Shown: in pieces, positions 80-52,756 of the stretch
Numbering within the stretch: position 1 is the stretch's first letter
Layout of the letters: every line of letters starts with the position of its first letter
DNA from: Squalus acanthias
Taxonomy: Eukaryota
DNA length: 64,000 nucleotides
Assembly: GCA_030390025.1 (NCBI GenBank)
Contig: CM059432.1
Location: forward strand, 76,634,001-76,698,000
Direction: 5' to 3'
Notes under the pieces: generated by a model
Database searches by the model: none
What the model was told of the DNA's origin: nothing
The model's input: only the letters and a program-made list of their open reading frames with translations
Position numbers and translations under genes: made by a program

Positions 80-680
80 CTATCAAGATATCATCATCCC
101 ACCATATTGTGTGGCTGCAATCCTGAACCTGCTACAGAAAGCATGTGAAAGAACTTGCCAGGATTCACATGAGGCACCTCGGCAATACCCTGAATGTTAA
201 ATGGCAGAAAAAAGTACCCAAAACTAAAGTTCTGACACGAGCAACACCACCAGCATTCATTCGATGCAGATAAGGGTGCAGCTGTGCTGGATCGGCCATG
301 CAGTGAAAATGGATGAGGGCCAGCTCCCTAAAAAAAACTCTTATGGCAAGCCTGAGGAAGGAAAAGGCACAAGAGGTGACCAGCACTCTCAAACAACATC
401 TGATTACCTGTGGCTATGCCTAAGGAGGACTGAGAGCAATGGATCAGTCAGGCTACTATCCCATTGTTTACAAAGGAACAATACGGTTCAAAACATCAGC
501 AGCTGGCAGCCTAACAACAGAAAAGACTGAAGAGGAAGATTCAGCTGAAAGCTCAGCCTGCTAGTAATGGCAACCGATGCTACAAATTCAGATTTGGCAC
601 CTTTAACATATTAAAACAACTTAGATTTCTGCGCCTGCATCAGCCTCACTAACCATCTGTGTGTGCATGCGCAATGGGAG
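80..680 (+). mobile_element. old degenerate RTE LINE 3' fragment
   Basis: ORF 264-530 contains QLCWIGHAVKMDEGQLPKK..YGK...GKGTRG, resembling the RTE C-terminus (compare HIVRMPDTRLPKQ in the RTE at 2248-2616); boundaries approximate. Confidence 0.65.
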
Positions 681-2247
681 AATGGGAACATGAAACCAAC
701 CTGAGATTTTCTTTAGCATCCTTGTCGGAATTGACAGGGCAATCATCATCACAGGTTCTTTAGCTCACCTCTGTCAACAAAGATTTGTGATGTTTCTCTA
801 ATGTAATTCTTCCAAATGTAGAAAAATTGGTTTGTTGGATATAAATTTAAAGATTGTGGGAGAATTTGCTGTCCTGTCACTTCTGAAACCTAGATCTAAT
901 CCAAACTAATAAGGCAAAAGTTCCCCCTTCCTACCACCTGAGGTGTCCTATTTGAAATGAGGCTGAACAGTTTTAGCCTGATTCCTAGTGGGTATGATGC
1001 ACAACACAAAACGTAATTCAGCATGTGATGGCACTAAATCTCACTCAGGGAGATAATAGAAATGAGTGGTGTGAAAAGTGGAAAAATTGACACCAATATA
1101 AGAGTACCTTTTTGGGGTTAGTACTGAAGTGCGGGTAAATGTTCTGGTCCCAGTGCTAATGTGGCAGGATCCTTGCCAACACTGCACCGAGCCAACCTAA
1201 TTAGCCATGCCTGGCAAGCTTCCAGTTTTGATTGGTCCTAAAACTGGATGGGAATTGTGCAAATCATCAAAAGGCTGCAGGCAATATTTAAAGGGATGCT
1301 GCCTCAATAACCATGTGGCTGCCATTTATGACCCATGTACTTTAGAGAATATAACCGTGCAGTGACATTTGGCAGTCATGTCACGCTAATGTTGCTATTC
1401 AGGGAAAAAGTAAATGAAAGTGCTTGCCATGCTGACTGATGCTTGATACATGTATAAACAGCACATTGGCTGTTACTGCAGCTAATCTCTATGCTAGCCT
1501 GGAAGTGTTAGAAATCAGGGGTGTCCAAAATGTATATGGTTATGCGTTTACATGATTGTATTAGAACTGCAGACTAGTATTAGAATGATTAGATAGATGC
1601 TTAGAATCTGCTTGTGTTTTGGTTCTCTGCGGATGTTATAGCATTCTGCAGTGTGATGGTCATATATAATCTTGCTGTGTCTTAACTCCCTGGTCCCTAT
1701 CCTCCCTGGTACAATTGGTACTAGGCTTGGCTTTGTCCCCTTTCAATTATGAGGCCCAAGCCAGAGCTGTCCCACTTCAGTTGGTCATTAACTCACTTTC
1801 ATATAACAAACTGCTCCATCCTGAGATGGATACCTTTACTCCCCTAAATTCCTTTTATTCTATGTCTTTCTATACTAATTAACTTTTAATTATCTTCACA
1901 AGCAGTTTTGTTAAGCTAACTCCAATTCCTACCTTAGCATTATATCATGGTTATTAGCAATAATAGAAGAAACATAGACATTGAGCCATAGTTGGTCCAA
2001 TTAGAGATACATAAACAAAGTTGAAATCCTAACTTGAAAACAGCAGATAGTTAGCTTGGAAACAAGATTATATATGACCATCACACTGCAGAATGCTATA
2101 ACATCCGCAGGGAATCAAAACACAATCAGATTCTAAGCATTTATCTAATTATTCTAATACTAGTCTGAAGAGACCTTTTGTCTCCAGTTCTAATACTTCT
2201 CTTCTTCTTAGGCAGTCCCTCGGAACCGAGGATGACTTGCTTCCACA

Positions 2248-5200
2248 CTAAAAATGAGTTCTCAGGTGACTGATGAGTCCAATGCGGGACCTACAGTCTC
2301 TGTCACAGGTGGGGCAGACGGTGGTTGAAGGGGCGGGTGGATGGGGTGCTTGGATTGACGTGCGCTCCTTCCGCTGTTTGCGCTTGGCTTCCGCTTGCTC
2401 CCGGCAAAGAGACTCGAGGTGTTCAGCACCTTCCCAGATGCTTCTTTTCCACTTTGTGCGGTCCTGGGCCAGGGATTCCCAGGTGTCGGTGGGGATGTTG
2501 CACTTTTTCAAGAAGGCTTTGAGGGTGTCCTTGAAGCGTTTCCTCTGACCACCTGGGGCTCTCTTGCCGTGCTGTTTTGGGAGTCTCGTATCGGGCATGC
2601 GGACGATGTGGCTCATCTATCGGAGCTGATCGAGCGTGGTCAAAGCTTCGATGCTGGGGATGTTGGCCTGAGCGAGAACACTGACTTTGGTGCGCCTATC
2701 CTGCCAATGGATTTGCAGGATCTTGCGGAGGCAGCGTTGGTGGTACCTCTCCAGTGCTTTGAGGTGCCTGCTGTACATGGTCCATGTCTCTGAAGCATAC
2801 AGGAGGGCGGGTATTACTACTGCTCTGTAGACCATGAGCTTAGTGCTGGGTTTGAGGTCCTGGTCTTCAAACACTCTCTTCCTCAGGCGACCAAAAGCTG
2901 CACTGGCACACTGAAGGTGGTGTTGGACTTCGTCATCGACTTCTGCCCTTGTTGACAGTAGGCTCCCAAGGTATGGAAAGTGGTCCATGTTGTCCAAGGC
3001 CTCGTCGTGGATTTTGATAATCGGGGAGCAGTTCTGTGTGGCGGGGGCAGGTTGGTAGAGGACCTTTGTCTGACGGATGTTTAGTGTAAGGCCCATGCTC
3101 TCGTACGCTTCGGTGAAGGTGTTGACGATGGTTTGGAGTTCGGCCTCAGAGTGTGCGCAGACGCAAGCGCCGTCTGCATACTGTAATTCGATGACAGAGG
3201 ATGGGACGACCTTGGATCTGGACTGGAGGTGACGGAGGTTGAACAGTTTCCCGTTTGTTCTGTAGATTAGCTCCACTCGAGCAGGGAGCTTACTGAGGGT
3301 GAGATGGAGCATTGCAGCCAGGAAGATCGAGAAGAGCGTTGGTGCGATGACAGAGCCTTGCTTGACCCCAGTCCGTACGTGAATTGGGTCTGTGGTGGAT
3401 CTGTTGGTCAGGATCACAGCTTGCATGTCGTCGTGAAGCAGACGGAGGGTGGTGACAAACTTTTGAGGGCAGCCGAATTTGAGGAGGACAATCCATAATC
3501 CCTCATGGTTGACGGTCTCGAAGGCCTTTGTGAGGTCAAAGAAGGCCATGTACAGTGGTTGGTGCTGTTCCCTGCATTTGTCTTGTAGTTGACGCGCGGT
3601 GAAGATCATGTCCATTGTGCCCCTTAGTGGGCGGAATCTGCATTGCGACTCTGGGAGGAGCTCTTCAGCTACTGGGAGAAGGCGATTGAGGAGGATTCTT
3701 GCGATGACTTTCCCTGTGGCAGACAGCAGGGAGACTCCTCTGTAATTACCACAATCGGACTTGTCACCTTTCTTGAAGATACTCACGATTACAGCATCTC
3801 TGAGATCCCCTGGCATGCTCTCCTCCTTCCAAATAAGAGAAATTAGTTAATGTATTCGCGACAATAGTGCTTCTCCGCCATGTTTTAGCGCCTCGGTGGG
3901 GATTCCATCTGCTCCTGAGGCCTTGTTGTTCTTCAGTTGTCGGATGGCCTTTTCAACCTCATGCAGGGCTGGGGTTGAGCTGAGGTGGTGGCGGGTAGCA
4001 TGCTGTGGGATGGAGTTGAGGACACTCGCGTCGAAGACAGAGACTCAGTTAAGAAGATCTTCGAATTGCTCCTTCCAGTGGGCACTGACTGCCTCTCTGT
4101 CCTTGATGAGTACCTCTCCGTTCTTGGCCCGCAGTGGGGTAGGACCTTGGGTGCTTGGGCTGTAGGTGGTCTTGACTGCGCTAAAGAATCCACGCACGTC
4201 GTGGTTGTTGGCTAGCTGCTGGATCTCCTGCGCTTTCTCCACCCACCATCTGTTCTTTAGGTCACGAGCTTTTTGTTGGACCTCGGCCTTCAGGCGTCTG
4301 TAGAGCTGCTTTCTTGCTCTTGAGTTCTTGCGCTTGCGGCTTATTAGCTCCTGGATCTCCTGGTCGTTCTCGTCGAACCAGTCTTGGTGTTTCCTGGTCG
4401 AGTGACCGAGCGTCTCTTCACAGGTGCTGATTATGGAGGGCTTGAGTGCAGACCAGGCACTGTGGACACTCTGTGTCTCTGAATCACTGGGAGTCGTCAG
4501 GTTTGTTGTAAGGCGTAGGCTGAATAGGGCTTTCTTAGTAGGGTCTTTCAGTGCTCCAGTGTTGATTTTCCTGCGGCATTGCTTCTGTTGCCACCGCTGT
4601 TTTGGGGCTACGTTGATGACAGAGCGGTGGTCTGTCCAGCAGTCGTCAGCTCCTGTCATGGCACGTGTGATGCGGATGGCCTTGCGGTCCCTCGCTCGGA
4701 CGATGACATAGTCCAGCAGATGCCAGTGCTTGGAGCGAGGGTGTTGCCATAAAGCCTTGTACTTGTCTCTCTGATGGAACAAGGTGTTGGTTATGACAAG
4801 GCCATGTTCTAAGCATTTCGTCAGGAGGAGGGTACTGTTGGAGTTGGCTTTCCCTACCCCCTCTCTGCCAATCACACCTCCCCAGAGGTCTGTGTCCTTT
4901 CCAACTCTGGCATTGAAGTCGCCAAGGAGGATCAGCTTGTTGCCTGTTGGGACTCGGGACAGGGATTGTTCGAGGCTGGAGTAGAATTCCTCTTTGGTCT
5001 CGTTGTGGCTTCCAGTGTTGGGGCGTACGCACTGATGACCGTAGCGCACTGGTTCCGGGCTAGGGTGAGCCATTGAGTCATGAGGCGTTCGTTTATTCCA
5101 CAAGGGGAGTCTCTGAGATGTTCAACTAGCTCATTTTTTATGGCGAAGCCTACCCATGGAGGCGGTGTTCTTCTTCAGGTTTGCCTTTCCAGAAGAAGGT

Positions 5201-5377
5201 ATAACCACCGCCTTGCTCTTTGAGCTGGCCTTCCCCTGCCCGCCGGGTCTCGCTTAGGGCGGCGATGTCTATGTCGAAACATCTGAGCTCCTGGGCAACG
5301 ATAGCAGTACAGCGTTCTGGTCTGTCGCTGTTGGGGTTGTCCATGAGGGTCCTGACGTTCCAGGTCCCAAACTTCAT
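2248..5377 (-). pseudogene. RTE ORF (AP endonuclease + reverse transcriptase + C-terminal Cys/His motif), frameshifted
   Basis: MKFGTWNVRTL...SETR, LILLGDFNARVG, LLDYVIVR, WTDHR (APE); NYRGVSLL, FFDLTKAF, GVKQGS, LQYADG (catalytic YADD changed to YADG); CPTCDRDC...HLRTH; split over several ORFs. Confidence 0.92.
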
Positions 5378-5704
5378 TTTAAAGGGTGGAAGATGCCTGT
5401 GCATGAATTCCTTTAATGTGGGGTGGCCATTGCACACCAGCTACCACACGGGCTTGACAGAGCAAGGTCTTGGTCCAATGGCAAGGGCATCCAAGACGAT
5501 TGGAGACCAGTCTCTGCTACATCGGCCTAGCATACACACATAAACATACTCCTACTGTCTTCCTCCCTCCTTCCCGCAGGTCCTCTCTGCCTGGGTTTTA
5601 TAGGCTGCAGTGTGGTGCTCCCGACCCCGCTGCTGTTCCACCCTGCGCCACTCCTGTGCCTCAACCTCGCTGCTGGGCTCACTCACTGGAAGGAGACACA
5701 CTAT

Positions 5705-5930
5705 AAGGAGGTCGGGACCCAGGAGCGAGGTCGAGGCCCAGGAGCGAGGTCGAGGCCCATGGGCGAGGACGGGGCCCAGGAGCGAGGTCGAGGCCCAGGA
5801 GTGAGGTCGGGACCCAGGAGCGAGGACGGGGCCCAGGAGCGAGGACGGGACCCAGGAGCGAGGTCGAGGCCCAGGAGCGAGGTCGGGACCCAAGAGCGAG
5901 GACGAGGCCCAGGAGCGAGGACGAGCCCAG
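5705..5930 (-). repeat. ~19-bp GC-rich tandem repeat forming the RTE 5' end
   Basis: about 11-12 units of CCAGGAGCGAGG(T/A)CG(AGGC/GGAC) on the + strand, ending exactly at the TSD. Confidence 0.9.
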
Positions 5931-7029
5931 CAGTTCTAATACAATCATGTTAACACAGCATTATTCGCGTCATAATTTTATTCGCATAACCATATACATT
6001 TTGGACACACCTGATTTCTAACAGAAGGTGTCAGAGGCAGAAAATCTGACGGAGGAGTTGACATCGACTGTCACAGGGCTATCATCCCAAGGTGCAGGTG
6101 AGCTGCAGATGACCGTGTAGCAGATGGCATGGCTCTGAATCTGGCTCCTTGCTGACCTGGGGCAGATGTAGCCAGCTCTCCTTGATCATTGTAAAAGGGA
6201 GGTGCGTTGGACCCTGCAGAGATGCTTGGTGACATAGTGGTAGGTACATTCAGTCGGGCTCTAGCACCTGCTGATCTCTCTGCCATGTCTTTTTTCATCG
6301 TTTGCCATTTCTGTCCTTGCCAGCGATCCCCACAGCCCGTGAATGAATTTTAAAAACCCTGCACATTAAGAAATGTCCAGTGACACTAAGCACAGGAGGA
6401 GGTGCCTGAATGCAGGTCGCATCGGTACTGAACACGGCGCTGGGAAGGTCTAGAGCAGAATAGCGACCAGCTGTCAGTAAAATCCTTTTCAGAAGGGAAT
6501 TGCAAGCACCAAGGGCCAGAAGTGTGCCAACTCAAACTGATCATATTCATATACAGGTGTAGCCAGGTATATGCAATGTATGCAAATGTTTACACATTTA
6601 TCTCCTAGGACGAAAAATCAGCTGCTAAAAGTTGAGTTTGCAGTGCAACAGATGATATGCTGCCCCAAGGGATCTGGCTGGGAAATCACTGTGTTCCATT
6701 AACTGATGTTCTTTTTATTACCTGCCCTAGCTGCAGCTTGTACTTGACACTACTGCTTCATTCCAGGACCAGACACAGTGCTGCAAGTGGGAATTCCTGA
6801 TCTTGCAATAAATCAGGAATTCAAGAGGGAAAGGAGTGCCAAAGTGATCTACAGGGGTTGGGTTGGAAGTAGAGAGTGTCTTTTGGAACTGTTGTGAGGG
6901 TGTTAGAGGGAGAAAGTAGCTCTGCGACCTGGGGGATTAGAAGGGCAAGAGTCTCTGCTTCTGTGGGCTGCCTTTTGGAAGGGGACAGTGCCTCCGTGAA
7001 AGGGGGAAGTTTAATTCATAGGATTCATT

Positions 7030-7907
7030 GGGGGAAAAATTCAGTATCGCCCCGTTTGGGGCGCAATTATCGGCCGGGCGAAAAGATTAGCGCCTGCCGC
7101 TAATTATTGCCTCCGACTACAAACTTGACTTTTATTGCCCCTGGAGGTGATTGGAGCGCTAAATCAGGCGCTACACATCTGTCTTAAGGCGCAAAGGCCG
7201 AGGAGCGAGGCGCTACCTCAGAGCGCTGGCGAAGCTCATGTGCTGTCAGTCAGCAATGGAACACAGACACAATGGCGCCGGCCAGTTCTTAAAGGGGAGG
7301 GTTGATCTTGCTTTCCATCCACATCCTGCTCATTGCAGCCCTGAATCTCAGGCCTGGAGAGACCTGTACATCAAATCTGCTGGAAAGAACAATGGAGAGA
7401 TCCAGGGAAAGAGTTCAGAGTGCAACCCCCACAGTCAAGGAAGGGTAAATCAAAATGAACCTGCAAAGTGCTGCTCAGTACCCAAAACTCCTTCACACAG
7501 TGTTGAATCTCTCCAGAAGTCACTCTCTCTCTCTCTCAGAATGAGTGGTGCAAAAATGTCACCAACGAAAAAAGGCAGAAAGTGGTCGCCTTTAAATAGC
7601 GCTCCCCCAGTCCCTTCCTGACTGCAAAACGCTCCCCACAACCTGTCGTTGCTACCGGCAGGCGGAAAGGCAGGGGGCGCCACTCAATATCCGCTACGGG
7701 GCGCTACCGGGGCGTTGCACACTCGACTGACGTCATGATCCTCCGGCGCAGGAGATCGTGGTGGTAGTGTTTAGCGCCGCCGCAAAATGTCTCGTTAATT
7801 TTGCGAGCGGCGCAAACATCGCCGCGCCCGGGCGCTAGTTTCTTTGCGCCCCATTAGCACCCACTTAAGGCGCTAACGGGAGGCGCAACCAACTGAATAT
7901 TTCCCCC
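7030..7907 (+). mobile_element. non-autonomous PIF/Harbinger element (copy 1)
   Basis: TIRs GGGGGAAAAATTCAG / CTGAATATTTCCCCC; highly similar inverted copy at 52757-53647 with TTT TSD. Confidence 0.85.
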
Positions 7908-8755
7908 ATAGAGTCATAGAGTTATACAGCACAGAAAGAGGCCCTTCGGCCCATCGTGTCTGCGCCGGCCATCAAGCCCTATCTGTTCTAATCCCATTTT
8001 CCAGCACTTGGTCCATAGCCTTGTATGCTATGGCGTTTCATGTGCTCATCTAAATGCTTCTTGAATGTTGTGAGGGTTCCTGCCTCTACCACCCTTTCAG
8101 GCAGTGAGTTCCAGATTCCAACCACCCTTTGGGTGAAAAAGTTTTTCCTCAAATCCCCTCTAAACCTCCTGCCCCTTACCTTGAAACTATGCCCCCTGGT
8201 TATTGACCCCTCTACTAAGGGGAAAAGTTCCTTTCTATCTACCCTATCTATGCCCCTCATAATTTTGTACACCTCAATCAGGTCCCCCCTCAGCCTTCTA
8301 TGCTCTAAGGAAAACAACCCCAGCCTGTCCAGTCTCTCTTCATAGCTGAAGCGCTCCAGCCCAGGTAACATCCTGGTGAATCTCCTCTGCACCCTCTCCA
8401 ATGCAATCACATCCTTCCTATAGTGTGGCGACCAGAACTGCACACAGTATTCCAGCTGTGGCCTAACTAGCGTTTTGTACAGCTCCATCATAACCTCCCT
8501 GCTCTTATATTCTATGCCTCGGCTAATGAAGGCAAGTATCCCATATGCCTTCTTAACCACCTTATCTACCTGTCCTGCTGCCTTCAGGGATCTATGTACA
8601 TGCACACCAAGGTCCCTCTGATCCTCTGTCCTTCCTAGGGTCCTACCATTCATTGTGTATTCCCTTGCCTTGTTAGTCCTCCCAAAATGCATCACCTCAC
8701 ACTTTTCAGGGTTAAATTCCATTTGCCACTGTTCTGCCCATCTGACCAACCCGAC
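7908..8755 (-). mobile_element. CR1 LINE 3' fragment (subfamily with CTCTATGA tail)
   Basis: ORF 7988-8821: WQMEFNPEKCEVMHFG...RDLGV...[15 protein letters not shown]...RGDLIEVYKI...FFTQRVV. Confidence 0.92.
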
Positions 8756-9670
8756 TATTGACTTCTGTTTTGAATATACCCAATGACAGCCTCCACAGCC
8801 CTCTGGGGTAGAGAATTCCAAAGATGCACCACCCTCTGTGTGAAGAAATTTCTTCTCATCTCAGTCCTGAATGACCTACCCTTTATCTTGAGGCTGTGGC
8901 CCCTGGCTCTAGACTCCCCAGATAAGGGAAACATTCTCCCAGCATCCACCCTATCAAGCCCTGTAATAATTTTGTATGCTTCAATGAGATCCCCCCTCAT
9001 TCTTCTGAATTCAAGAGAATACAGGCCTAGTTTACTCAATCTCTTCTCATACGACAGTCCCGCCATCCCAGGAATCAATCTCGTGAACCTTCGTTGCACT
9101 CCCTCTATGGCAAGTATATCCTTCCTTAGGTAAGGAGACCAACATTGTACACAGTACTCCAGGTGTGGTCTCACCAAAGCCCTATATAATTGGAGTAAGA
9201 CTTCTTTACTCCTGTACTCAAATCCTCTTGTAATGAAGGCCAGCGTACCATTTGCCTTCCTAATGGCTTGCTGCACCTGCACATTCACTTTCAGTGACTC
9301 ATGTACAAGGACACCCAGGTCCCTTTGAGCATCTGCATTCCCCAATCTTTCACCATTTAGGAAATACTCTGCCTTTCTGTTTTTTCTACCAAAGTGGATA
9401 ACTTCACATTTATCCACATTATATTCCATCTGCCATGTTCTTGCCCACTCACTGAGCCTGTCGAGATCCCCTTGAAGCCTCTTCACATCCTCTTCACAAC
9501 TGACACTGCCATCTCGCTTTGTATCATCAGCAAATTTGGAAATGTTACATTTAGTCCCCTCATCCAAATCATTGATATAGATTGTGAATAGCTGGGGCCC
9601 AGGCACCAATCCTTGCGGTACCCCACTAGTCACAGCCTGCCATCCTGAAAAAGACCCGTTTATCCCTACT
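8756..9670 (-). mobile_element. CR1 LINE fragment (RT C-half), 3' end missing
   Basis: ORF 8755-9633: [26 protein letters not shown]. Confidence 0.92.
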
Positions 9671-10951
9671 CATTAACCAGTCATTTACAGTAATTGGAAA
9701 ATACTGTGCATCCGCTTTCTTTATTTCTGCATTATTTTTCCAACTTCATGATCTATTGAGTGTTATTTTATCTTTACTTCCAGTTGTGTAGTTTAATCAG
9801 TAAGTGCAGTATTGGCAGGGGAAAGAAAGAAAATAGTCTACACCTCGCTGCTGCAGCCCTTTAAATAATTGCAGTTATACTGATGAATGCCACCTTTGTA
9901 AGTGTGAGCTTTCAGAGGGAGCCCACTCCGAGGGTGGAAGCTCACTATACAGAATTAATTAGCGGCCAAGTTGGAAGTTATGGTGGAACAGCTGTGGCTT
10001 TATGTCGAGTGGACATCCTGCTGTGCACCACTTCCCACCATGGGAGTACCCTTTCCAGAATTTCTACCCTCCTGTTTCTAGGAAAGGAAATTGATCATCA
10101 AGGTTAACCAGCTTGACAATGATCCAAACCAGAACACCATAAAGGTTTTAAATGTCAGTGCAAGTGGTGATTCTCAAAAGGGGCGATTCCAAAAATAAAT
10201 AAACAATGTTTTCCTCTGACTCCATTTTCTTAGTTCCTCTCCACCCACAACTGAAACATTGCAACAGGATCTTTCAACACAAGAGTATAGAAGTGCTCAG
10301 GGCTTCCTGTGTATATCCTGATTGGTTTAAATATCCCAACAGATTTATAAAAGCTATTTTTAGAGCCCATTAATGATTGTGGTTTTTTTTATGCTTTAGA
10401 CAAATGAGGTTAATTAATAAGGGTCTAAAATTCTGAGCCATATCACATTCCTGTCAGTATAGTTTATCATATTGACAATAGAGTTGGCTGCATTACAATG
10501 TGTGCTGAATGCCATCCTTCAACGTTGGGCTTGCACAGCTTGTGAAGTGGTATTGCAGTGATTTTCTTTTTGAATCCTTTAACCATTGAATTGCTCAGTA
10601 AACCACCAAGTACATAAACAAAGTTTTGGTACAGCCTCTGGATTTTATGGAGAATCTTAACCTATAATTTACTTTGAGCTAATGGCATCTTGTTGTTAGT
10701 GCAGCTGATAAACTATTTGCACAGGACTATGGATATCTAAGATGTTTAAAACTGACTCAAATAACATTCAAACATCACTTCTTAAGTATTGGAAGATATT
10801 AGTATAACAAGGCTACTGGCATGAAGTGAATGTGAATGTGCAAGGGTCAAAAGGCTGAGTGATATTTACTAAGTTAGAGTGAAGAAGATTAATGTAGTAT
10901 TTTTCTACTGCACTGTTTTGTTCCCACACATTTCCAATAGTGTGCGATAAA

Positions 10952-11040
10952 TCATCGACCTGAAACGTTAACTCTGTTTCTCTCTCCACAGATGCTGCCA
11001 GACCTGCTGAGTATTGCCAGCATTTTCTGTTTTTATTTAT
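10952..11040 (+). mobile_element. solo fragment of Penelope-like terminal repeat
   Basis: TCATCGACCTGAAACGTTAACTCTGTTTCTCTCTCCACAGATGCTGCC...; matches the 3' end of the Penelope-like element at 24770-24850. Confidence 0.8.
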
Positions 11041-11399
11041 TATTAATGTAAAACCACTAGCCAGCAGCCAACAAAGCTGAAAAAAACAGTAGAATGAGTC
11101 ACCCTGTGGGAAAGATGACCGAATGATTACTTTAAACATTTTTAGCAGCAGAATCAGAGACATAGCAGATGTTTTCCAGTGTAATCCAGTATAGTCCAGT
11201 GCAGAAGCATATTGGTGTAATCCAAGTCTAGTCCAGTGCAGCAACGTAGTCTTGATGTCCAGAGAAGTCAAGGAATTTGGAAACCAAATTTGAGAAGAGC
11301 ATTCAGCAGCTCAATGAGAGAAGCAGAGAGCAGAGGGGTGGGGGATGGGTAATGGCGGTTTAAAATAGCAGTTAACTTGTAGTTAACTTGGAGTCAGGG

Positions 11400-14109
11400 C
11401 TAAAATACGGCCACTAATGGAGCCAGGGGAACTTGAACAGTGGAAGCGAGGAGATTTGGGAGAGAAAGGGCAAAGGATGGCTGCAGATTCCCATAGATAG
11501 AGGTGAAACAGGTTAGTTGCTGCTTTATTTCTTCTTGCTGTTGCTACAATTCTACACGCTTTTGGTGCTTTCCATAGTTGTTTCAAGTTTCAAAGGTATA
11601 CAGGGAGTAATGTGGCAGGTGCTGAAGTACTTTTTCCTGACTTCAAGGCTTCCTGACATGGGTGCACTAGTAGGGCTTCCTCTTGGAAGCGAGCACGACT
11701 GGGAGAATGAGCAGAGACCATGCAGAGCAGGACAAGCTGCTAGAAGAGAGAGGAGGAGGATGGGGAGAATGGCTCTCAGCAGGAGGCCATATCCGCCCAG
11801 GATGTTGAGGGAGCAATTCTCCTACCTGAACTTCAGCGACAACCAATGGTTGAGATGTCTGCGCTTCACTAAGGAGCTCTTCACTGAAATCTGACAACTG
11901 CTGCAGCCACAACTCCAAACTCAGAGCAGGGCAAGGACCACATTGCCATTGGCTGTGAAGGTGACCGTGGCTATGAACAATCATGTGCCTGGCTCCTTCC
12001 AGGCTGGTGCGGAGATATTTACAACATCTCGCAGTTTTCAGTGCACTGTTGCATAAGGGAGGTCACTGATGCTCTCTATTCAAAGAGAGATAACTTAATT
12101 TCATTCCCTCTTGCCAGAGAGAAGCAGGCGGAGCGAGCACAAAGGTTTGCAAGGATTGCAGGCTTCCCCATGGTGCAGGGTGCCATTGACTGCAGGCATA
12201 TTGCTTTGCGTGCACCTCATGTCTACTCTGCCATGTACTGGAACCAAAAGGGATTCCACTCCCTCAACATGCAGCTGGTGTGTGACCATAGGCAGTGCAT
12301 CATGCAGGTCAATGTCCGATATCTTGGCAGCAGTCATGATTCCTTCATTCTGCAACAGTCCTCTGTTCCACCTGTATTTGAACCACCTTGGCAAGTCAAA
12401 GGCTGGCTAATAGGTGGCAAGAGTTATCCACTCATGACATGGCTCACATCATCCGGTCCAGAACCCACACACACATGCACAGCAGGCATACAATGAGGGC
12501 CATGCTGCCACAAGGAACATTATAGAGCACACCGTCAGACAGACATCTCCAAGTTTGCAGTCCACCATTGTATCAAGGAGGTCACCAAGGCTCTCTATGC
12601 CAGGAAGAATACCTATATCTCTTTCCCAATACAGGGAGAGCACTTCGCTCACATTGCAGACTTTCCCAGGGTGCAAGGTGCCATAGACTGCACCCACGTG
12701 GCCTTGCATCACCATCCTAGCATCGTTCTGAATAGGAAGGGATTCCACTCTCTCACTGTCTATCTTGTTTGCAACCACAGGCAATGCATCATGCAGGTCT
12801 GCGTCTGGTTTCCCAGCAGCAGTCATGACTCATTCATCCTGCGTCAGTCCTCTATGCCGCCTTTATTCCAAGCAGGCCATCAGGTTACAAACTGGATATT
12901 GAGCGACAAGGGCTATTCTCTTCAGACTTAGCTCATGACTCCTGTTAGTAACTGGGGCATAGCTGCAGAGGTGGCCTACAACGAGAGCCATCCTGCCACC
13001 AGGAATGCAATTGAGCAGACTGTCTGGTGTTCAAGCAACGCTTCCGCTGCCTGGACCACTTGCCAGTAGCTTTTCAGTACAGTCCTGACTATGTATCCAG
13101 ATTTGTGGTCTTCTGCTGCATGCTGCATAACTTTGTCATCATGAGGGACCAGTCCTTGCACCCATCTGGGCAACAGGAAGGGCAGCAGGAGGAGCAGGAG
13201 CGTACAGAGGATAAAGAACAGGAGCAGCATTGACTACCAGTGCCCCTTTCTGCCAGAGCTCTCAGAGAGCAGCTCATCAAAAATCGCTTCAAGCGAATCA
13301 TCCCTCCCATCCCCAATACACCAAAAGTTCCACAATCCTTATCATCACCATCCTTACTACCACCATCCGATTGCCTTCCTTCATCCAGACTTATGGATCT
13401 TGCCCTCACTTCTCTACAAATAACCAATACTAAATCCAGAATGAAAAACAAATTTATCAAACAACTCACCAGTGGCTTTGTATCCCCCTGTCCTCGTTCC
13501 TGCGCACATGTGCCCGGTGATTTGCTACATGAAGGATCATCCTCTAGCCTAGCCTCTAAAGTAGGTGTGGTTCCAGTTTCTGAGCTAGTGCGTGATAGAG
13601 TAAGATCAAGTGATGCTGCATCTTCACAAAGGCTGGTCTCCTCTTCCTAAGGTGGCAGTGGTATCTCCACATTTTCAGCACCTGAAATGAAAGAGGGACT
13701 AGAATTAGGTTTTATTGTGAAGAGAGAGCAAAGAAAGATGAGTGGCTGGTGAATGCAGCTGCAGTGTATCATGCAGAGTGTGTAGAGTGAGACAGAGGTA
13801 ATAAAGGAAAAATAGGATAACGTGTGGAGAAACCCTGTATGATGTCTCCCCCAGCATCGCCACTCGCCACAGCCATGACTCTCCCCCAAGCCCGTGTTGG
13901 CCAGCAGGTGCTGGGTGACTTTAAGTGGCGTCAGAGAAGCTCAATTTCCTGCATCCCAAAACAAGTAGTGCCGGCTGCACGACTACATCATTTTAGTGAG
14001 GTCCCAGCACAAATTTCATGTGGTCCCAATTGACCATGTGAAGAGGTGCATGCAGAGTGTGCTCCACCCCCTGCACACCCGTTTTTGAGCACAATTACAT
14101 TTCTAGGCC
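11400..14109 (+). mobile_element. degenerate PIF/Harbinger element A (left end uncertain)
   Basis: HARBI1-like transposase remnants on +; Myb-gene exon remnants on - at ~13480-13880; right end TTTCTAGGCC resembles the right end of element B. Confidence 0.8.
11658..13295 (+). pseudogene. Harbinger (HARBI1-like) DDE transposase, disrupted, catalytic core present twice
   Basis: GFPMVQGAIDCRH...NQKGFHSLNMQLVCDH...GSSHDSFIL, then again VQGAIDCTH...NRKGFHSL...SSHDSFILRQS...LSDKGY; ends FKQRFRCLD...CCMLHNF. Confidence 0.88.
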
Positions 14110-15434
14110 ATGGTGTGTGAATTTCAGTATGTGAACACATAATGCATTAGTCCAGTTAAACCAAATCCTCGTTAAAATACAGAGAAACAAAGGAACTGCA
14201 CATGAATTTCACACTAACATTTGTATGCTAATATTCGCCTAGTACAATTTCAACACGCTAGTCTTTTTGTAACAGAGTGATGTCTATAGTTTACTCCTGT
14301 TTGCTGTGAACTTTACACAAGGCACCTGAGCCAACACTACCAACTAACAGTTTGATGAATCAGAGGAACAAGCCACATCCATTACAGTAAACTAAGCTCA
14401 ACTCACAATGACTGCATTCTTAGCATTGATTCAAAGTGCTTCCACAACCTTCTAACCCAGAGAAATATTCTTTGCTTCTCCGGCTACTGAAACAGCCTTG
14501 AAACTGATCGACTCTTTACAAAGCAAAATTGCAGTCCTGAGACTGATTTATTTCTATTACCTTAGCTGGAAGGAACACTTTAAAAAAAAATGTGCTGCAT
14601 CGAGATTCAATCAATGCACAAGCAGTGATTTTGAACTGGAGGGACTGTTTCCCATTAATGTATGAGACATTTGCACTCCCCCTATATGGAGCAAAGAATG
14701 GATGGTTAGTGCTCGGATCTTCACCATAAGGATATCACTTCATTTCATTATAAGAGGAGTGTAATTCCATTCAGTTGCATGGTAAGTGAATTACAATACT
14801 CACATTTCTTCATACAAATGGAGTCTATTTAAACCCACAATCTCTATCAGTTAATTACATGCTTAATTTTGTTCTTAAACATCCACTGAAACAGTTAAAA
14901 ATTGATCTCTCTTATTGAGATTGAGTCGGCTTAGTTTTGTGGTATTAGTGAGCCCAAAATATGGCACAGACTTTGTGGCATAACAAGTGTAAAATATTGC
15001 TCATATTCTGGTAGAGGGTGTACAAGGTTGTGTCCAACCAAGTTACTAGATTATTCCATATGTTGCACATAATATACATAATTGGCAAGCATGGAATTCT
15101 AATTTTTTCTCACTAATAAAGATAACCTCAGTTTGTTACTTTTGAGTTGTGTCCTCACCAGTAAAACATGGATAGTGCTTTATACTTACTCAGTATGTGT
15201 TCTATTTATTCCATAGACTCATGGTTTAAGCATGTTGAAATAGTAATTTGTAACAAAATCTTCAAACACCTCTGAGACTTACTTGCTTTAATTCAGTTGC
15301 ACTTCTTATTTCTGAGACGACATTGCCCAAAGTGAGAGCATGTTAGCCATTAGGAAGTGATTGCAGTGCTAATTATCATTTGCCAATATTAGCCCTACAT
15401 AATATCACATAGGGAACACAACAGGGAAAAGCAT

Positions 15435-18066
15435 CCCAGTATTAGGAATAGACAAAATATATGGCTGGAGAGCTGGTGCAGGAGGGAGGGCTTTAGATTC
15501 CTGGGACACTGGGACCGGTTCTGGAGGAGGTGGGACCTGTACAGGCCGGACGGGTTGCACCTCGACAGAGCTGGAACCAATGTCGTCGCTGGGGGGGTTT
15601 GCTAGTGCAGTTGGGGAGGGTTTAAACTAATTTGGCAGGGGGATGGGCACCAGGATGTAACATTAGAAAGGAGAAACAAAGTGCACAAAGGATGGGAGAG
15701 AGAGATAGCACTAGAGTAAGAAATAGTATGGTATTAGGTGGGGTCAGACTAAGAGAGAATACAAGAAGGTCGAAGATAGGTATACAGTGCATGTGTGTGA
15801 ATGCACAAAGCGTGGTAAATAAGGTTGGTGAGCTGCAGGTGCAAATAGCCACATGGGAATAATATGTGGTGGTGATAATGGAGACCTGACTCAAAAAGGG
15901 CAGGATTGGGTTTTAAATATTCCTGGATATAAGGTGTTCAGGAACGGATCTGGCCCGGGTAAATTGGAATCAAACATTGGCAGGCAAACTGTAATCGAAC
16001 AATGAGCTGCCTTTAAAGAGGAGATGGTTCGGGTACAGTCGCGTTACATTCCCATGAGGGGGAAAGGTAGAGCAACTAAACCCAGAGCTCCCTGGATGAC
16101 AAAAGAGATAGAGAGTAAGATGAAGCAGAGAATGAGCGCGTATGACAGATGTCAGGTTGAGAATACAAGTGAGAATCAGGCTATATATAGAAAGGTCAGA
16201 GGGGAAGTGAAAAAGGAAATAAGAGGGGCAAAGAGAGAGTATGAGAATAGATTGGCAGCTAACATAAAAGGGAATTCAAAAGTCTTCTATAGGCATATAA
16301 ATAGTAAACGGGTAGTAAAAGGAGGGGTGGGGCCGATTAGGGACCAAAAAGGAGACCTACGCATGGAGGCAGAGGGCATGGCTGAGGTACTAAGTGAATA
16401 CTTTGCATCTGTCTTCACCAAGGAACAAGATGCTGCCAAAGTCATAGTGAAAGAGGAGGTAGTGGAGGTAGTGGAGATACTGGGTGAGATAAAAATTGAT
16501 AAAGAGGAGGTACTAGAAAGGCTGTCTGTACTTAAAGTTGTTAAATTACCAGGACCGGATGGGATGCATCCTAGAATGCTGAGGGAAGTTAAGGAGGAAA
16601 TCGCGGAGGTACTGACCATAATCTTCCAATCCTTCTTAGATACAGGGGTGGTGCCAGAGGACTGGAGAATTGCAAATGTTACACCCTTGTTCAAAAAAGG
16701 GTAGAAGGATAAATTCAGCAACTACAGGCCAGTCAGTTTAACCTCAGTAGTGGGGAAGCTTTTAGAAATGATAATCAGGGACAAAGTTAACAGCCACTTG
16801 GATAAGTGTGTATTAATTAAGTAAAGCCAGCATGGATTTGATCGAGTTTTTTGATGAGGTTAATGACGGCAATGCGGTTGATGTGGTGTACATGGACTTC
16901 CAAAAGGCGTTTGATAAAGTGCCACATAATAGGCTTGGCAGCAAAGTTGAAGCCCATGGAATAAAAGGGACAGTGGTGGCATGGATCCGAAATTGGCTAA
17001 GTGACAGGAAATAGAGAGTAGTGATGAATGGTTGTTTTTCGGACTGGAGAAAGGTATACACTGGTATTCCCCAAGGGTCGATACTAGGACCACTGCTTTT
17101 CTTGATATATATTAATGACTTGGACAGGGCACAATTTCAAAATTTGCAGATGACACTAAACTTGGAAGTATAGTGAACAGTGAGGAGGATAGTGACAAAC
17201 TTCAAGAGTACAGAGTCTGGCTGTTGAAATGGGCGGACACGTGGCAGATGAGATTTAACGCCGAAAAGTGCAAAGTGATACATTTTGGTAGGAAGAATGA
17301 GGAGAGGCAATATAAACTAAAGGGTACAATTCTAAAGGGGGTGCATGAACAGAGAGACTTGGGGGTATATGTACACAAATCATTGCAGGTAGCAGGGCAG
17401 GTTGAGAAAGCAGTTAAAAAATCATATGGGATCCTGGGCTTCATAAATAGAGGCATGGAGTACAAAAGCAAGCAAGTTATGATGAACCTTTTTAAGACAC
17501 TGGTTCGGCCTCAACTGGAGTATTGTGTCCAATTCTGGGCACCACACTTTAGGAAGGATGTGAAGGTCTTAGAGAGGGTGCAGAAAAGATTTACGAGAAT
17601 GGTTCCAGGGATGAGGTACTTCAGTTACGTGGATAGACTGGAGGAGCTGGGGTTGTTCTCCTTAGAGCAGAGAAGGTTGAGAGGAGATTTGATAGAGGTG
17701 TTCAAAATCATGAGGGGTCTAGACAGAGTAGATAGAGAGAAACTGTTCCCATTGACGGAAGGGTCGAGAACCAGAGGACACAAATTTAAGGTGATTGGCA
17801 AAAGAACCAAAGGCGACATGAGGAAAAACGTTTTTACTCAGTGAGTGGTTAGGATCTGGAATGCACTGCCTGAGAGGGTGGTGGAGGCAGAGTCAAGCGT
17901 GGCTTTCAAAATGGAATTGGATAAGTAGCTGAAGGAAAAAAATTTGCAGGGCTACGGGGAAAGCGCGGAGGAGTAGGACTAGCTGAAGTGCTTTTACAGA
18001 GAGCCGGCATGGGCTCGATGAGTCGAATGGCCTCCTTCTGTGCTGTAACCATTCTATGATTCTATA
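15435..18066 (+). mobile_element. CR1 LINE with ORF1 end and internally deleted ORF2
   Basis: ORF1 tail (FRFLGHWDRFW...DGLHL); EN start CMCVNAQSVVNK; RT PGPDGMHPR, WRIANVTPLFKKG, VYMDFQKAFDKVPH; tail ATTCTATGATTCTA. Confidence 0.93.
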
Positions 18067-22186: not shown

Positions 22187-24185
22187 CGATCCGAACCTAG
22201 ACTCATGTCCAAATTCCTGCCCGCTCCCCGTAACCCTTAATGCCCTTTACTTCTAGGAAACTGTCTATTTCTGTTTTAAATTTAATTAATGTTGTAGCTT
22301 CTACAGCTTTTTGTGGCAGCATATTCCATGGACCTACCACCCTCTGAGTGAAGTAGTTCCTCCTCATCTCAGTTTTGAAAGAGCAGCCCCTTATTCTAAG
22401 ACTATGTCCCCTAGTTCTCGTCTCACCCGTCATCGGGAACATCCTCCCCGCATCCACCCGATCCAACCCCTTCACAATCTTATATGTTTCAATAAGATCG
22501 CCTCTCATTCTTCTGAACTCCAATGAGTAGAGTCCCAATCTACCCAACCTCTCCTCATATGACCACCCCCTCATCTCCGGGATTAACCGAGTGAACCTTT
22601 TTTGCACTGCTTCGAGAGCAAGGATGTCTTTCCTTAAGTAAGGACACCAAAACTGTATGCAGTATTCCAGGTGCGGTCTCACCAATACCTTGTACAACTG
22701 AAGCAATACCTCCCTATTTTTATATTCTATCCCCCTAGCAATGAAAGCCAACATTCCATTTGCCTTCTTAATCACTTGCTGCACCTGCATACTAACCTTT
22801 TGAGTTTCGTGCACCAGGACCCCCAGATCCCTTTGCACTTCAGTACTCTCCAGTTTCTTGCCATTAAGATAATAAATTGCTCTAGGATTTTTCCTGCCAA
22901 AGTGCATCACCTCACACTTTCCAGTGCTGTATTCCATCTGCCAAATCTCTGCCCACTTACTTAGCCTGTCTATGTCCCCTTGCAGGTTTTTTATGTCCTC
23001 CTCACTCACTACTTTCCCTCCCATCTTTGTATCATCTGCAAATTTTGATATGTTACACTTGGTCCCTTCCTCCAAATCGTTAATATAGATTGTGAAGAGT
23101 TGGGGACCCAGCACTGACCCCTGTGGAACACCACTAGTTACTGATTGCCAGTCTGAGAATGAACCATTTATCCCAACTCTTTGCTTTCTGTTAGATAGCC
23201 AATCCTCTATCCATGCCAGAATATTACCCCCAATCCCGTGATTTTTTACCTTAAGCAATAATCTTTTGTGTGGCACCTTGTCAAATGCCTTTTGGAAGTC
23301 TAAATACACTACGTCCACTGGTTCCCCTTTATCCACTCTATATGTTACTTCCTCAAAGAACTCCAGCAAATTTGTCAAACATGACTTCCCCTTCGTAAAA
23401 CCATGCTGACTTTGTCCTATTAAATTATGATTATCCAAATGTCTTGTTACTGTTTCCTTAATAATGGACTCTAAAATTTTACCTACCACAGATGTTAGGC
23501 TAACCGGTCTATAGTTACCAGCCTTCTGTCTACTGCCCTTTTTAAATAAGGGTGTTACATTAGCAGTTTTCCAGTCTGCCGGGACCTTAGCGGAATCCAG
23601 GGAGTTTTGAAAAATTATTACCAATGCATCTACAATCCCTACCGCCACTTCCTTCAAGACTCTAGGATGTAAGCCATCAGGTCCAGGTGATTTATCCGCC
23701 TTGAGTCCCATTATTTTACCGAGTACCACTTCCTTAGTGATTTTGATCGTGTTTAGCTCCTCTCCCCCTATAGCCCCCTGTTTGTCCAGTGTTGGGATAT
23801 TCTTAGTGTCCTCTACTGTAAAGACTGATACAAAATATTCATTCAGTGTTTTTGCCATCTCCATATTTCCCACCATTAATTTCCCGGTCTCATCCTCTAA
23901 GGGACCAACATTTACTTTAGCCACCCTTTTTCTTTTTATATAACTATAAAAACTCTTACTATCTGTTTTTATATTTTTTGCTAATTTACTTTCATAATCT
24001 ATCTTCCCTTTCTTAATCAATCTTTTTGTTATTTTTTGCTGCCTTTTAAAGTTTTCCCAATCCTCTGTCCTCCCACTAGATTTCGCTACCTTATATGCCC
24101 TTGTTTTTAGTCGAATACTATCCTTAATTTCTTTACTTAGCCACGGATGACTGTCCTTTCTTTTACACCCTTTTCTTTTCAGTGG
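22187..24185 (-). mobile_element. CR1 LINE fragment nested in the Penelope-like ORF
   Basis: Penelope reading ...RFTCTS | NLVYC... is split around it; lacks both the 5' part and the terminal TTCTTATG tail. Confidence 0.93.
22203..24020 (-). CDS. uninterrupted 605-aa CR1 ORF2 fragment (complete RT domain, no endonuclease)
   Basis: [55 protein letters not shown], no stops; TE-derived, expression unknown. Confidence 0.75.
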   Translation of the reverse strand: MIKKGKIDYESKLAKNIKTDSKSFYSYIKRKRVAKVNVGPLEDETGKLMVGNMEMAKTLNEYFVSVFTVEDTKNIPTLDKQGAIGGEELNTIKITKEVVLGKIMGLKADKSPGPDGLHPRVLKEVAVGIVDALVIIFQNSLDSAKVPADWKTANVTPLFKKGSRQKAGNYRPVSLTSVVGKILESIIKETVTRHLDNHNLIGQSQHGFTKGKSCLTNLLEFFEEVTYRVDKGEPVDVVYLDFQKAFDKVPHKRLLLKVKNHGIGGNILAWIEDWLSNRKQRVGINGSFSDWQSVTSGVPQGSVLGPQLFTIYINDLEEGTKCNISKFADDTKMGGKVVSEEDIKNLQGDIDRLSKWAEIWQMEYSTGKCEVMHFGRKNPRAIYYLNGKKLESTEVQRDLGVLVHETQKVSMQVQQVIKKANGMLAFIARGIEYKNREVLLQLYKVLVRPHLEYCIQFWCPYLRKDILALEAVQKRFTRLIPEMRGWSYEERLGRLGLYSLEFRRMRGDLIETYKIVKGLDRVDAGRMFPMTGETRTRGHSLRIRGCSFKTEMRRNYFTQRVVGPWNMLPQKAVEATTLIKFKTEIDSFLEVKGIKGYGERAGIWT

Positions 24186-24753
24186 AACAATTTAGTATAC
24201 TGTTTTCGTTGCTCTCGATGCAGTCTCCTCTATAATGAGGAGACCAAGCGCAGATTGGATGACCACTTTGTGGAACACCTCCGTTCAGTCCGTAAGCGTG
24301 ACCCCGAGCTTCCGGTCACTTGTCACTTTAAATCTCCACTCCACTCTCACTCCGATCTCTCTGTCCTTGCCCTGTTACACTGTTCCAACGAAGCTCAATG
24401 TAACCTTGAGGAACAGCACCTCATCTTTCAATTAGGCACTTTACAGCCATCTGGACTCAACATCGAGTTAAACAATTTCAGACTATAACCTTGGCCCCTA
24501 TGTTTTCTTTTTTCTCTCACATGGCAGCTGTTGATGATTCTGCCATTGTCATTTACACCTCATCTAGAGCCATCTTTTGTTTCTTTACTTGTCCCATTAC
24601 CATTTCCTTTTGCCTTGCACCATCATCCCTTTTGCCTTTTAATCTCTCCTGCCTTCCATCCTATCACAGACCTTCCCTTTGTTCTTTCCGCCCCTCCTCC
24701 CTTTCCCTGCCCCACACTTGCTTAAAAATCTTGTTACATCTCTAACTTTTTAC

Positions 24754-25646: not shown

Positions 25647-26147
25647 GGCTGCAAAATTCGGGGGTTTAACTTCGGCCTTTAAGGCCAGTTTTGATGAAAC
25701 AATGGCAGCCGACTCGCCATCACCCGCTTCCGGCGGGTCCCGCGGCGGACGCCATTTTGGGGAGGTCGGTAGCGCTGCCGTTGCCAGCGCTCACTCCAGG
25801 TTTTTAGATTCGGCATATTGTGACGTCAATGAGTGTGCAACGCTGATTTGATGCACGATCTGCCATTTTGGACGTCGCCGTTCCATTTAACGCCCTCTCT
25901 TAATCACGACCAGCTGAGCAAGCGTTCAGCAGCAGGATGGAGCCCCCAGCAGCGCTAATTAAAGGGATCATCAACAACTTGCAGCTGACTTGATTTTTCA
26001 GTTCTACTGGCTCTGTGTAAGTTTGTGCAACTGTTTGGAGCTTTCTAAAGTGTTTAAAGTTGCTAACGTCACAGGGAATGTTACTGCAAGTGGAGAACGA
26101 CTTGCTTCTCATTTAAAGGCTTCTGCTCACACCACTTGCTCCCAGTC

Positions 26148-27059
26148 ATGGGGGCTCTACTTGCAGTCCCTCTCGCATTCAAGTATGATATGGAGGTGGA
26201 GCGGAGACAGCGAAGAAGAGGACAAGATGCTCGCAGAGGGAGGAGGAGGAGGGGCAAGAAGGCTCTCAGCAGGAGACCTTACCCACCTAGGGTCTTCTGA
26301 GAGCACTTCTTCTACATGCACTTAAGCCAGGAGTAGTGTATTAAGAGGCTCCACTTCACCAAGGAGGTGGTCACAGAAATCTGCCACCTCCTGCAACCAA
26401 ACTTGCAGCTTCAGAGCAGGGCGACCACGGCTCTCCCGGTGGCCCTCAAGGTCACCGTGGCCCTCAATTTTTTCACCCTCGGATCCTTCCAGTCTGCAGC
26501 AGGCGACATAGCTAATATCTCTCAGTTTGCCTTGCATCGCTGCATCATGATCATGAATGCCTGCTATCCTGGCAGCAGTCAGGCTGCCTTCATCCTGCGC
26601 CCATCTAGTGTGCCAGCAATCTTCCAGCCACCACGTCAAACTCGAGGGTGGCTGCTCGGCGACAAAGGTTATCCATTCTGCACCTGGCTGATGACTCCCC
26701 TCTGCAACCCCACCACCCGTGGCCAGCAGTTATATAATGACAGCCATGCTGCCACAAGGAACGTCATCAAACAGACCATCGGGGCGCTCAAGCAACAGCT
26801 TTGCTGCCTTGACCACTCTGGAGGAGCCGTCCAGTACTCGCCAGAGCAGGTGTCCCATTTCGTGGTGGTCTGCTGCATGCTCCACAACTTGGCCATCGTG
26901 AGGGCGCAGCCCTTGCCACCAGGGTTTCCAGGACCATTTCAACAGGAGGATGAGGAGGAAGAGGAAGAGGAAGAGGAGGAGGAAGGGAGGAGGCAGGTAG
27001 CAAATCCCCATTCCAGATGGGCTGTCCGTGAGCACCTCATCAGACTCCAATTCCAATGA
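26148..27059 (+). pseudogene. Harbinger transposase, internally deleted
   Basis: [46 protein letters not shown], acidic tail; the GAIDCTH segment is missing near 26547. Confidence 0.88.
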
Positions 27060-27522: not shown

Positions 27523-27739
27523 CCATGATGTGGAGATGTCGGTGTTGGACTGGGGTGGACAAATGTGAGAAGTCGCACAACACCAGGTTATAGTCCAACA
27601 GTTTTATTTGAAATCACAAGCTTTCGGAGCGCTGCTCCTTCATCAGACTTCACCTGCCGAAGGAGCAGCGCTCCGAAAGCTTGTGATTTCAAATAAAACT
27701 GTTGGACTATAACCTGTTGTTGTGCGACTTCTCACATTT
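27523..27739. mobile_element. inverted pair of Penelope-type terminal repeats with hammerhead-like cores
   Basis: 12-bp TSD ATCCTGAGAGAG at 27511-27522 and 27740-27751; arms 27561-27641 and 27659-27739 (1 mismatch in 81 bp); CTGATGA-A-GGAGC-AGC-GCTCC-GAAAGCTT on the - strand. Confidence 0.8.
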
Positions 27740-27863
27740 ATCCTGAGAGAGGACAGCAGGTTATTGTTCCATGGAGCCACTGCTACACCCCCGGGGCGGC
27801 GTTTCAGCAATCCTAGTAATCTGTTGGAGGACAGATTGTTGGCCTGCTGTGAAACCCTACAAG

Positions 27864-52250: not shown

Positions 52251-52756
52251 GCAATTTGTCATTAATTGATACTAAATTGGTAGTCTTATTCTGAGATGTG
52301 AAAATAATGGATGTTGTGAGAAATGAATTTTCACACTGATGCAATAGGGAACGCTCTTCCAAGGTTTGGTTAAGGCACCTTGCTGGGGCAGTGTAGCAGA
52401 AAATGTACCCTGCATTTATCCTAAATAGCAAGCCGACATGGGAGGCTGTGCTCTTTCCCATTATCTGGTCAAAAATAAGTAGCTTAGTACAGATTTTAAC
52501 ACTGAAAGGTTTTTTATTGATGTAGTAACATTTAATTAGTTCATTCATTTAGTTTATTCATTTATAGGTTTAAGCTTTCTAAAAGCAATGCAATATATTC
52601 CTTGTTTTTTAAAGTATGCATGCTATACTTTACAAGTGAATATGTGCCAAAAGTGAGAAATTGTTCTACCGCAAGCATCGACAGCCCTCGCCGTGAACAA
52701 CAAAAAAATGTTAAGTTTTGAAGTGGACCCTTTGTATAAGGGCTGCAAGGGAGTTT

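Follow-up and report, generated by a model that had tools for sequence, protein, structure and literature searches.

An old inverted-repeat element with TGTTA...TAACA ends in Squalus acanthias, split by a retrotransposon and resembling integrase-type MITEs

In a 64,000-nucleotide stretch of the Squalus acanthias genome (assembly GCA_030390025.1, contig CM059432.1, positions 76,634,001 to 76,698,000 of the forward strand; the whole stretch is called the window, and positions are counted from its first letter), positions 1506 to 6023 raise the question of whether two distant inverted sequences are the arms of one transposable element and, if so, which kind of enzyme moved it. A first reading made from the letters alone (the sequence-only reading) had proposed a hidden non-autonomous DNA transposon of Ginger type. 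The explanation favoured here, with a probability of about 0.55 for the statement as a whole, is that the locus holds an old copy of a non-autonomous cut-and-paste family of elasmobranch-type genomes, similar to MITEs (miniature transposable elements with inverted repeats) and moved by an integrase-type DDE enzyme. That there is a family with terminal inverted repeats (TIRs) at all is, as a separate part of that statement, very probable.

The split element and its target site

The arms pair in four blocks, 1506-1545 with 6023-5984 (39 of 40 bases identical), 1546-1557 with 5954-5943 (11/12), 1558-1569 with 2196-2185 (12/12) and 1570-1674 with 2167-2063 (100/105). This amounts to 162 of 169 aligned bases, a difference of 4.1% (95% interval 1.7-8.3%), and bears out the proposal that 1506-1674 is the reverse complement of 2063-2196 joined to 5943-6023, with gaps of 29 and 17 bp. 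A 108-bp piece of the arm alone gives a blastn E value of 6e-44. The inverted match stops at TGTTA and TAACA, where no outward extension is possible, and the junctions read GAAG/TGTTAG at 1502-1511 and CTAACA/GAAG at 6018-6027, so the termini at 1506 and 6023 and the GAAG beside each of them are present as first described. TIRs of about 170 bp had been reported, which holds for the left arm (169 bp) and not for the right, which measures 134 + 81 = 215 bp and retains the two segments, of 29 and 17 bp, that are missing on the left (Table 1).

Removal of 2197-5942, which comprises a 3.7-kb long interspersed element (LINE) and one copy of its 12-bp duplication, leaves an element of 772 bp running from TGTTA to TAACA, against the roughly 770 bp predicted. 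More than half of it is inverted repeat, a property that the folding of 1506-2196 (z -14.7) merely restates. The 12-bp duplication, together with contigs that lack the LINE (see below), upholds the view that the element had been hidden by a LINE splitting its right TIR. The LINE matches RVT_1 of Pfam (E 8.6e-33), its endonuclease match lies below the curated cut-off, and it presumably belongs to the RTE group, a label taken from the sequence-only reading and not assigned by a tool. At its 5' end (5649-5930) a GC-rich unit of 19 bp is repeated 11 times, with a short inverted unit copy at 5649-5678; the array may be a trait of the LINE family or have been acquired by this one copy.

The spacer between the arms had been described as AT-rich, non-coding and about 390 bp long. 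Its length (388 bp) and the lack of a coding signal agree with this, but it is not more AT-rich than the arms (37% GC, against 35.5% in the left arm). Four short frames of the arm, spacer and left flank gave no Pfam match, which holds for the longest spacer frame of 70 amino acids too (its recognition score of 1739, with matches under 0.9, amounts to noise), and an Rfam search over 1200-6400 returned a single match with E 0.13, far under the gathering score.

Evidence that GAAG is a target duplication comes from two sources of unequal weight. Among 140 maximal inverted 12-mer pairs lying within 15 kb of each other in the window, this pair is the only one flanked by a direct repeat of at least 4 bp. 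About 0.5 such pairs would be expected by chance (a 4-bp match at a fixed boundary arises at about 1/256), so the scan alone proves little, and more weight falls on a test of register in the Harbinger gene that the element interrupts. For this test the two flanks were aligned, one at a time, to further Harbinger copies of the window, with 200 shuffles as control. The right flank ends at reference positions 26489 and 34208, and the left flank starts at 26486 and 34205, which gives an overlap of exactly four bases, CTTC/GAAG, on two of the three reference copies (26486-26489 and 34205-34208). In protein alignment both flanks join on one common Phe codon. The right-flank DNA scores of 65 and 66 exceed those of all 200 shuffles (maxima 57 and 58). 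This register supports reading GAAG as a true 4-bp target duplication, in which case the site would have held one GAAG before the insertion.

The reference at 26337 matches Pfam DDE_Tnp_4 (E 1.1e-16), and the one at 33945 gave no Pfam match. An assignment of the flanks to the Harbinger Myb gene was dropped, as the alignments show the transposase gene instead. Decayed elements of Harbinger type, with frames for a transposase and Myb-like frames, lie at several places in the window (11600-13160, 26138-27059, 33945-34964 and 36886-37452); two of them served as references in the register test. Two inverted copies of another non-coding repeat family, probably Harbinger-related, are found at 7030-7908 and 52756-53647 and are 89% alike over about 890 bp. 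At 27557-27743 there is a 187-bp near-perfect palindrome, 92% self-complementary and with TCCTGAGAGAG-like sequence on both sides, that looks like a hairpin MITE or a foldback derived from a short interspersed element (SINE) within a Harbinger accessory gene region.

A multi-copy family and its age

Public sequencing runs were searched with 1506-2197, represented by 70 sampled words, and 20 runs were listed. Sixteen of these, from seven organisms and six studies, hold a share of 0.20-0.34 of the words, none reaching half; four rows with small shares (organism F three times and one fish gut metagenome; organisms are designated by letters) were left uncounted. Five of the 16 runs are small, at 85-255 million letters, and in runs of that size mostly repeats would be expected to assemble. 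Contigs of four runs from four organisms were then aligned to 1200-2300, and the figures given below for individual pieces cover the listed pieces.

In the three large runs summed contig depth, which is not a copy number, lay at 5-26 over the flank (1200-1347) and at 475-17,923 over the element; in the small run the values were 0 and 22-391. The ratio of the spacer median to the lowest flank bin was 122, 308 and 305 in the large runs, where the bin medians for spacer and arms were 1360 and 1653, 2833 and 4955, and 1614 and 3733, the arms being 1.2-2.3 times deeper. Since the depth of the spacer is of the same order as that of the arms, arms and spacer have spread together. Each part of the arms and spacer is covered by dozens of distinct contigs (up to 57 at one site), and the flank by one. 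The family is therefore read as having many copies, probably hundreds.

The contigs also show what other members look like. Passing 2196, 24 and 12 contigs continue into sequence like that from 5943 onward, so that LINE-free copies exist and the reconstruction is confirmed. At 1546 twenty contigs turn into the 29-bp segment, and depth is just 6-20 at 1547, as against 2300-5000 in the bin 1496-1532 (three runs); the corresponding gap in the left arm is thus peculiar to this copy, and possession of the 29-bp segment is the usual state of the family. The 17-bp segment is crossed gap-free by listed contig pieces. With both arms whole, at about 215 bp each, a full-length member measures about 820 bp. 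At 1864-1871 the alignment of five listed pieces ends, leaving 6-192 letters unaligned, other pieces cross that point, and contig joints skip from 1714-1796 to 1854-1873. These breakpoints suggest a short deletion derivative as well as members with different or longer interiors.

A single-copy local inversion or duplication beside a chance 4-bp repeat could draw on the fact that no second copy lies within the 64-kb window. Against it stand the dozens of contigs on each part of the element compared with one on the flank, the LINE-free copies, and flanks that rejoin in register over exactly 4 bp, and this rival is largely refuted and now hardly credible. The multi-copy contigs and the in-register flanks instead sustain the earlier proposal of a non-autonomous multi-copy TIR family.

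The insertion and the family are both judged to be old. One contig of organism G runs from 157 flank bases into 41 element bases with 15 differences in 198, which satisfies the 31-letter rule used to call a bridge; those of organisms A and H reach just 15 and 27 bases into the element, too few under that rule. The bridge in organism G indicates an insertion older than at least one split, unless the contig is paralogous. Over the element, 29 listed pieces show differences of 3.4-16.7% from this copy (median 12.1%), a figure to be read with the bias of long contigs toward divergent copies. Many contigs differ at eight listed sites of the right arm, and at five of these the two arms of this copy carry the same base, which points to a subfamily or to conversion between the arms. 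The insertion target is itself part of a repeat, since 17-36 contigs per large run align to 1459-1505 and carry common variants, and paralogous empty sites should therefore exist.

The enzyme that moved the family

Ginger1 and Ginger2 are defined by TGTNR ends and 4-bp duplications, with TIRs of 40-270 bp in Ginger1 and of 45-297 bp in the Ginger2 table, and a duplication of 4-5 bp is given for Ginger2/TDD (PMC2836005). The element has TGTNR termini, a 215-bp TIR and, in the one copy where it can be read, a 4-bp duplication, in agreement with both groups. This duplication does not fit PIF/Harbinger or hAT, which duplicate 3 and 8 bp. Together with the TG ends it also rules out Polinton and GingerRoot/IS3EU, for which 6-bp duplications and AG or mostly TA termini are described (PMC6839031, PMC10045372), so neither a Polinton nor a hAT family, which the sequence-only reading had named as its own possible undoing, fits this copy.

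Among the nearest known counterparts are Ginger2/TDD MITEs. Ginger2 MITEs of 531-651 bp that start with TGTTAC occur in insects (Bombyx and Rhodnius; PMC3845634), and a non-autonomous Ginger2, Ginger2-1N1_NV, is known from a sea anemone (PMC2836005). The element shares with such MITEs the TGTNR ends (TGTTAG here), the 4-bp duplication, a non-coding body of a few hundred bases and multiple copies (tens to more than 100 in theirs). It differs in its target, GAAG, where theirs are AT-rich (RTATAY; WRTH, KHTM, TATA), in its TIRs of 215 bp compared with listed lengths of 16-52 bp, and in its vertebrate host, the described MITEs being those of invertebrates; they also have identified autonomous partners, whereas none has been identified for the shark element. 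With Ginger1 it has in common the ends, the duplication, a TIR length inside 40-270 bp and the existence of relics in vertebrates, and it departs from it in target. The element would, somewhat more probably than not, work like a Ginger MITE, with membership in either Ginger1 or Ginger2 not established.

Several observations weigh against an integrase-type origin of this kind. In Hydra, Ginger1 inserts into CCGG (75%) and CCGT/ACGG (24%), and Ginger2 prefers RTATAY (PMC2836005). The GAAG target is none of CCGG, CCGT or ACGG, and GGAAGG matches RTATAY at two of six positions in either orientation, so that a single site, in one copy, speaks strongly against Ginger1 as it behaves in Hydra and moderately against Ginger2, whose RTATAY rule is a preference and whose probability is thereby lowered. 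Both duplication length and target are read in this copy alone (n=1), and the depths that point to a large family are not copy numbers. In the register test the left-flank DNA scores (44 and 44) lie under the shuffle maxima (49 and 53) and are not significant alone, and the third Harbinger reference yielded no junction. A search for seven integrase and Gypsy motifs in the six frames of the window produced one match, in an unrelated-looking frame. Ginger1 relics are named in alligator, turtle, coelacanth and frog but, in the text available from the same study, not in its chimaera (PMC9004415), and the literature searched on Ginger in sharks, fish and vertebrates yielded no mobile Ginger family of sharks or rays.

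Within that literature, GIN2 occurs in the elephant shark (PMC3424704); the only match to Ginger in the available part of a catshark genome paper is an author name (PMC11979771), the main text of PMC4350176 does not contain the word, and the supplement of PMC9004415 mentions neither Ginger nor Academ. The accessible portions of PMC5753468, PMC12863088, PMC11071193 and bioRxiv 2021.09.26.461848 hold nothing decisive. The transposase sought would carry YPYY, H2C2, DDE and GPY/F motifs if of the Ginger1 type, and H2C2 and DDE without GPY/F and YPYY if of the Ginger2/TDD type, as these are described. A 21-base terminal pattern had no match in viral contigs. Its one match in metagenome contigs was rejected as probable chance, with 23-24 bases in common where a tandem array of an unrelated 79-bp unit begins or ends; that contig (L001) bears the array and inverted unit copies at 213-328 and 1429-1780 and resembles one end of some eukaryotic foldback transposon unrelated to the element.

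Three other origins share some of these features. A foldback made of two copies of one long terminal repeat (LTR) end of a Gypsy element or endogenous retrovirus (ERV), or an unusual solo LTR, brought in by the integrase of a retroelement, is rather improbable. Retroelement integrases require no CCGG or TATA-type target, and TATATAA stands at the inner end of each arm, with AATAAA on the minus strand at 1854. However, 53-86% of contig depth has another base at 2072, which breaks TATATAA, and such motifs are common in sequence of 63-65% AT. An inverted repeat of 215 bp is not an LTR trait and here takes up more than half of the element; the tips of an abundant LTR should moreover far exceed the spacer in depth, and arms just 1.2-2.3 times deeper would argue against an origin from such an LTR. 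Several hundred non-coding bases with TG...CA ends and a 4-bp duplication do fit the usual call of solo LTRs, which is made on TG...CA ends and duplications of 4-6 bp (PMC8969392), and Ginger TIRs themselves have been proposed to derive from inverted LTRs (PMC2836005).

A non-autonomous derivative of another TIR superfamily with 4-bp duplications, most plausibly AcademX, is also unlikely. Academ elements have long TIRs and YR...YR termini, the latter compatible with TG...CA, and no CCGG or TATA-type target is expected of them. Their agreement with the element extends to the duplication, which is 3 or 4 bp in AcademX (PMC10045372), and an Academ fossil is listed for amniote genomes (PMC9004415). 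Five bases of TGTTA, on the other hand, fit the specific TGTNR pattern of Ginger and Gypsy more closely than they fit a two-base rule, and no Academ transposase or other Academ sequence was seen. Equally hard to favour is a TIR family with a transposase outside every described superfamily, placed among unclassified DNA transposons with 4-bp duplications. A target that conforms to neither Ginger preference and a partner that was not found would suit it, but integrase-type elements already described have matching ends and a matching length of duplication, and the absence of the partner is attributed to missing data.

An integrase-type DDE enzyme remains the favoured agent, in the following sequence of events. 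A Harbinger-type transposase gene decayed at the locus, and the element, which may have arisen by internal deletion of a longer one, inserted into it through a 4-bp staggered cut that duplicated GAAG, as the register shows. It would have been moved in trans by a transposase of the retroviral or Gypsy integrase type which, like that of Ginger, recognises TG...CA termini and makes cuts staggered by 4 bp. The LINE entered the right arm, where its 12-bp duplication is visible, and the left arm lost 29 bp, as seen against the contigs, and presumably 17 bp. The Ginger-type label originally given is compatible with the termini, with the length of the arms and with the duplication; the target suits neither preference, and no integrase was found. 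An autonomous partner, also claimed at first, is implied historically and need not survive, given an insertion common to another organism and listed pieces with a median divergence of about 12%.

It is a tentative further suggestion, possible and well short of even odds, that the element stems from an integrase-type lineage not described so far, whose copies number hundreds in sharks or rays and whose target choice is unlike that of Ginger1 and Ginger2. Such a lineage could be a third Ginger-like group, or an element derived from an LTR integrase at the LTR-to-TIR transition proposed for Ginger, and the longer members hinted at by the breakpoints near 1870 would then carry the transposase.

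Features of the locus and significance

The features of the split element are collected in Table 1. Elsewhere in the window, an uninterrupted frame of 662 amino acids at 22203-24191 encodes a CR1-type reverse transcriptase; among the named matches of the 120 listed it is closest to three elasmobranch proteins (69%, 64% and 61%), the other named matches listed, mostly of birds and turtles, being at 55% or less. Long frames at 61796-63900 look rich in proline and arginine and come from a degenerate tandem repeat.

Table 1. Coordinates of the split element, the inserted LINE and the flanking gene, in window positions.
Feature	Position	Strand	Basis or remark
Left flank: rest of the same Harbinger-type gene, in register across one 4-bp target copy	1420..1505	-	Junction alignment
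Left target duplication copy, GAAG	1502..1505	.	Sequence read and register test in the interrupted Harbinger gene
Left TIR, 169 bp, starts TGTTA	1506..1674	+	Without the 29-bp segment (after about 1545) and the 17-bp segment (after 1569) of the right arm
Internal spacer, 388 bp, 37% GC	1675..2062	.	Coding signal not found; contigs break near 1780 and 1869/1871
Right TIR, inner 134 bp	2063..2196	-	Contains 2168-2184 (17-bp segment) and 2185-2196 (12-bp duplication of the LINE, first copy)
Non-LTR retrotransposon insert, frameshifted	2197..5930	-	Frames for reverse transcriptase and endonuclease; tandem array of the 19-bp unit (5708-5920) at the 5' end
LINE's 12-bp target duplication, second copy	5931..5942	.	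Matches 2185-2196
Right TIR, outer 81 bp, ends TAACA	5943..6023	-	Contains the 29-bp segment 5955-5983; contig loose ends at 2196 continue like 5943 onward
Right target duplication copy, GAAG	6024..6027	.	Sequence read and register test in the interrupted Harbinger gene
Right flank: upstream stretch of an old, decayed transposase gene of Harbinger type	6024..6140	-	DNA alignment above shuffles

The element is a new family of an already known kind of element, and the family may already sit unclassified in Dfam or Repbase. If no integrase-type partner exists, it is one more unclassified MITE. An insertion common to related species could also be used as a presence/absence marker among them. Evidence for Ginger in vertebrates has so far consisted, in the literature as sampled here, of protein relics and the domesticated genes GIN1 and GIN2. 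If the partner is an integrase-type transposase, the family would supply a record, dated and in many copies, of Ginger-like transposition in cartilaginous fishes. As its ends are intact and its insertion sites numerous, its target preference would be measurable and its partner recoverable, which bears on how LTR integrases become cut-and-paste transposases.

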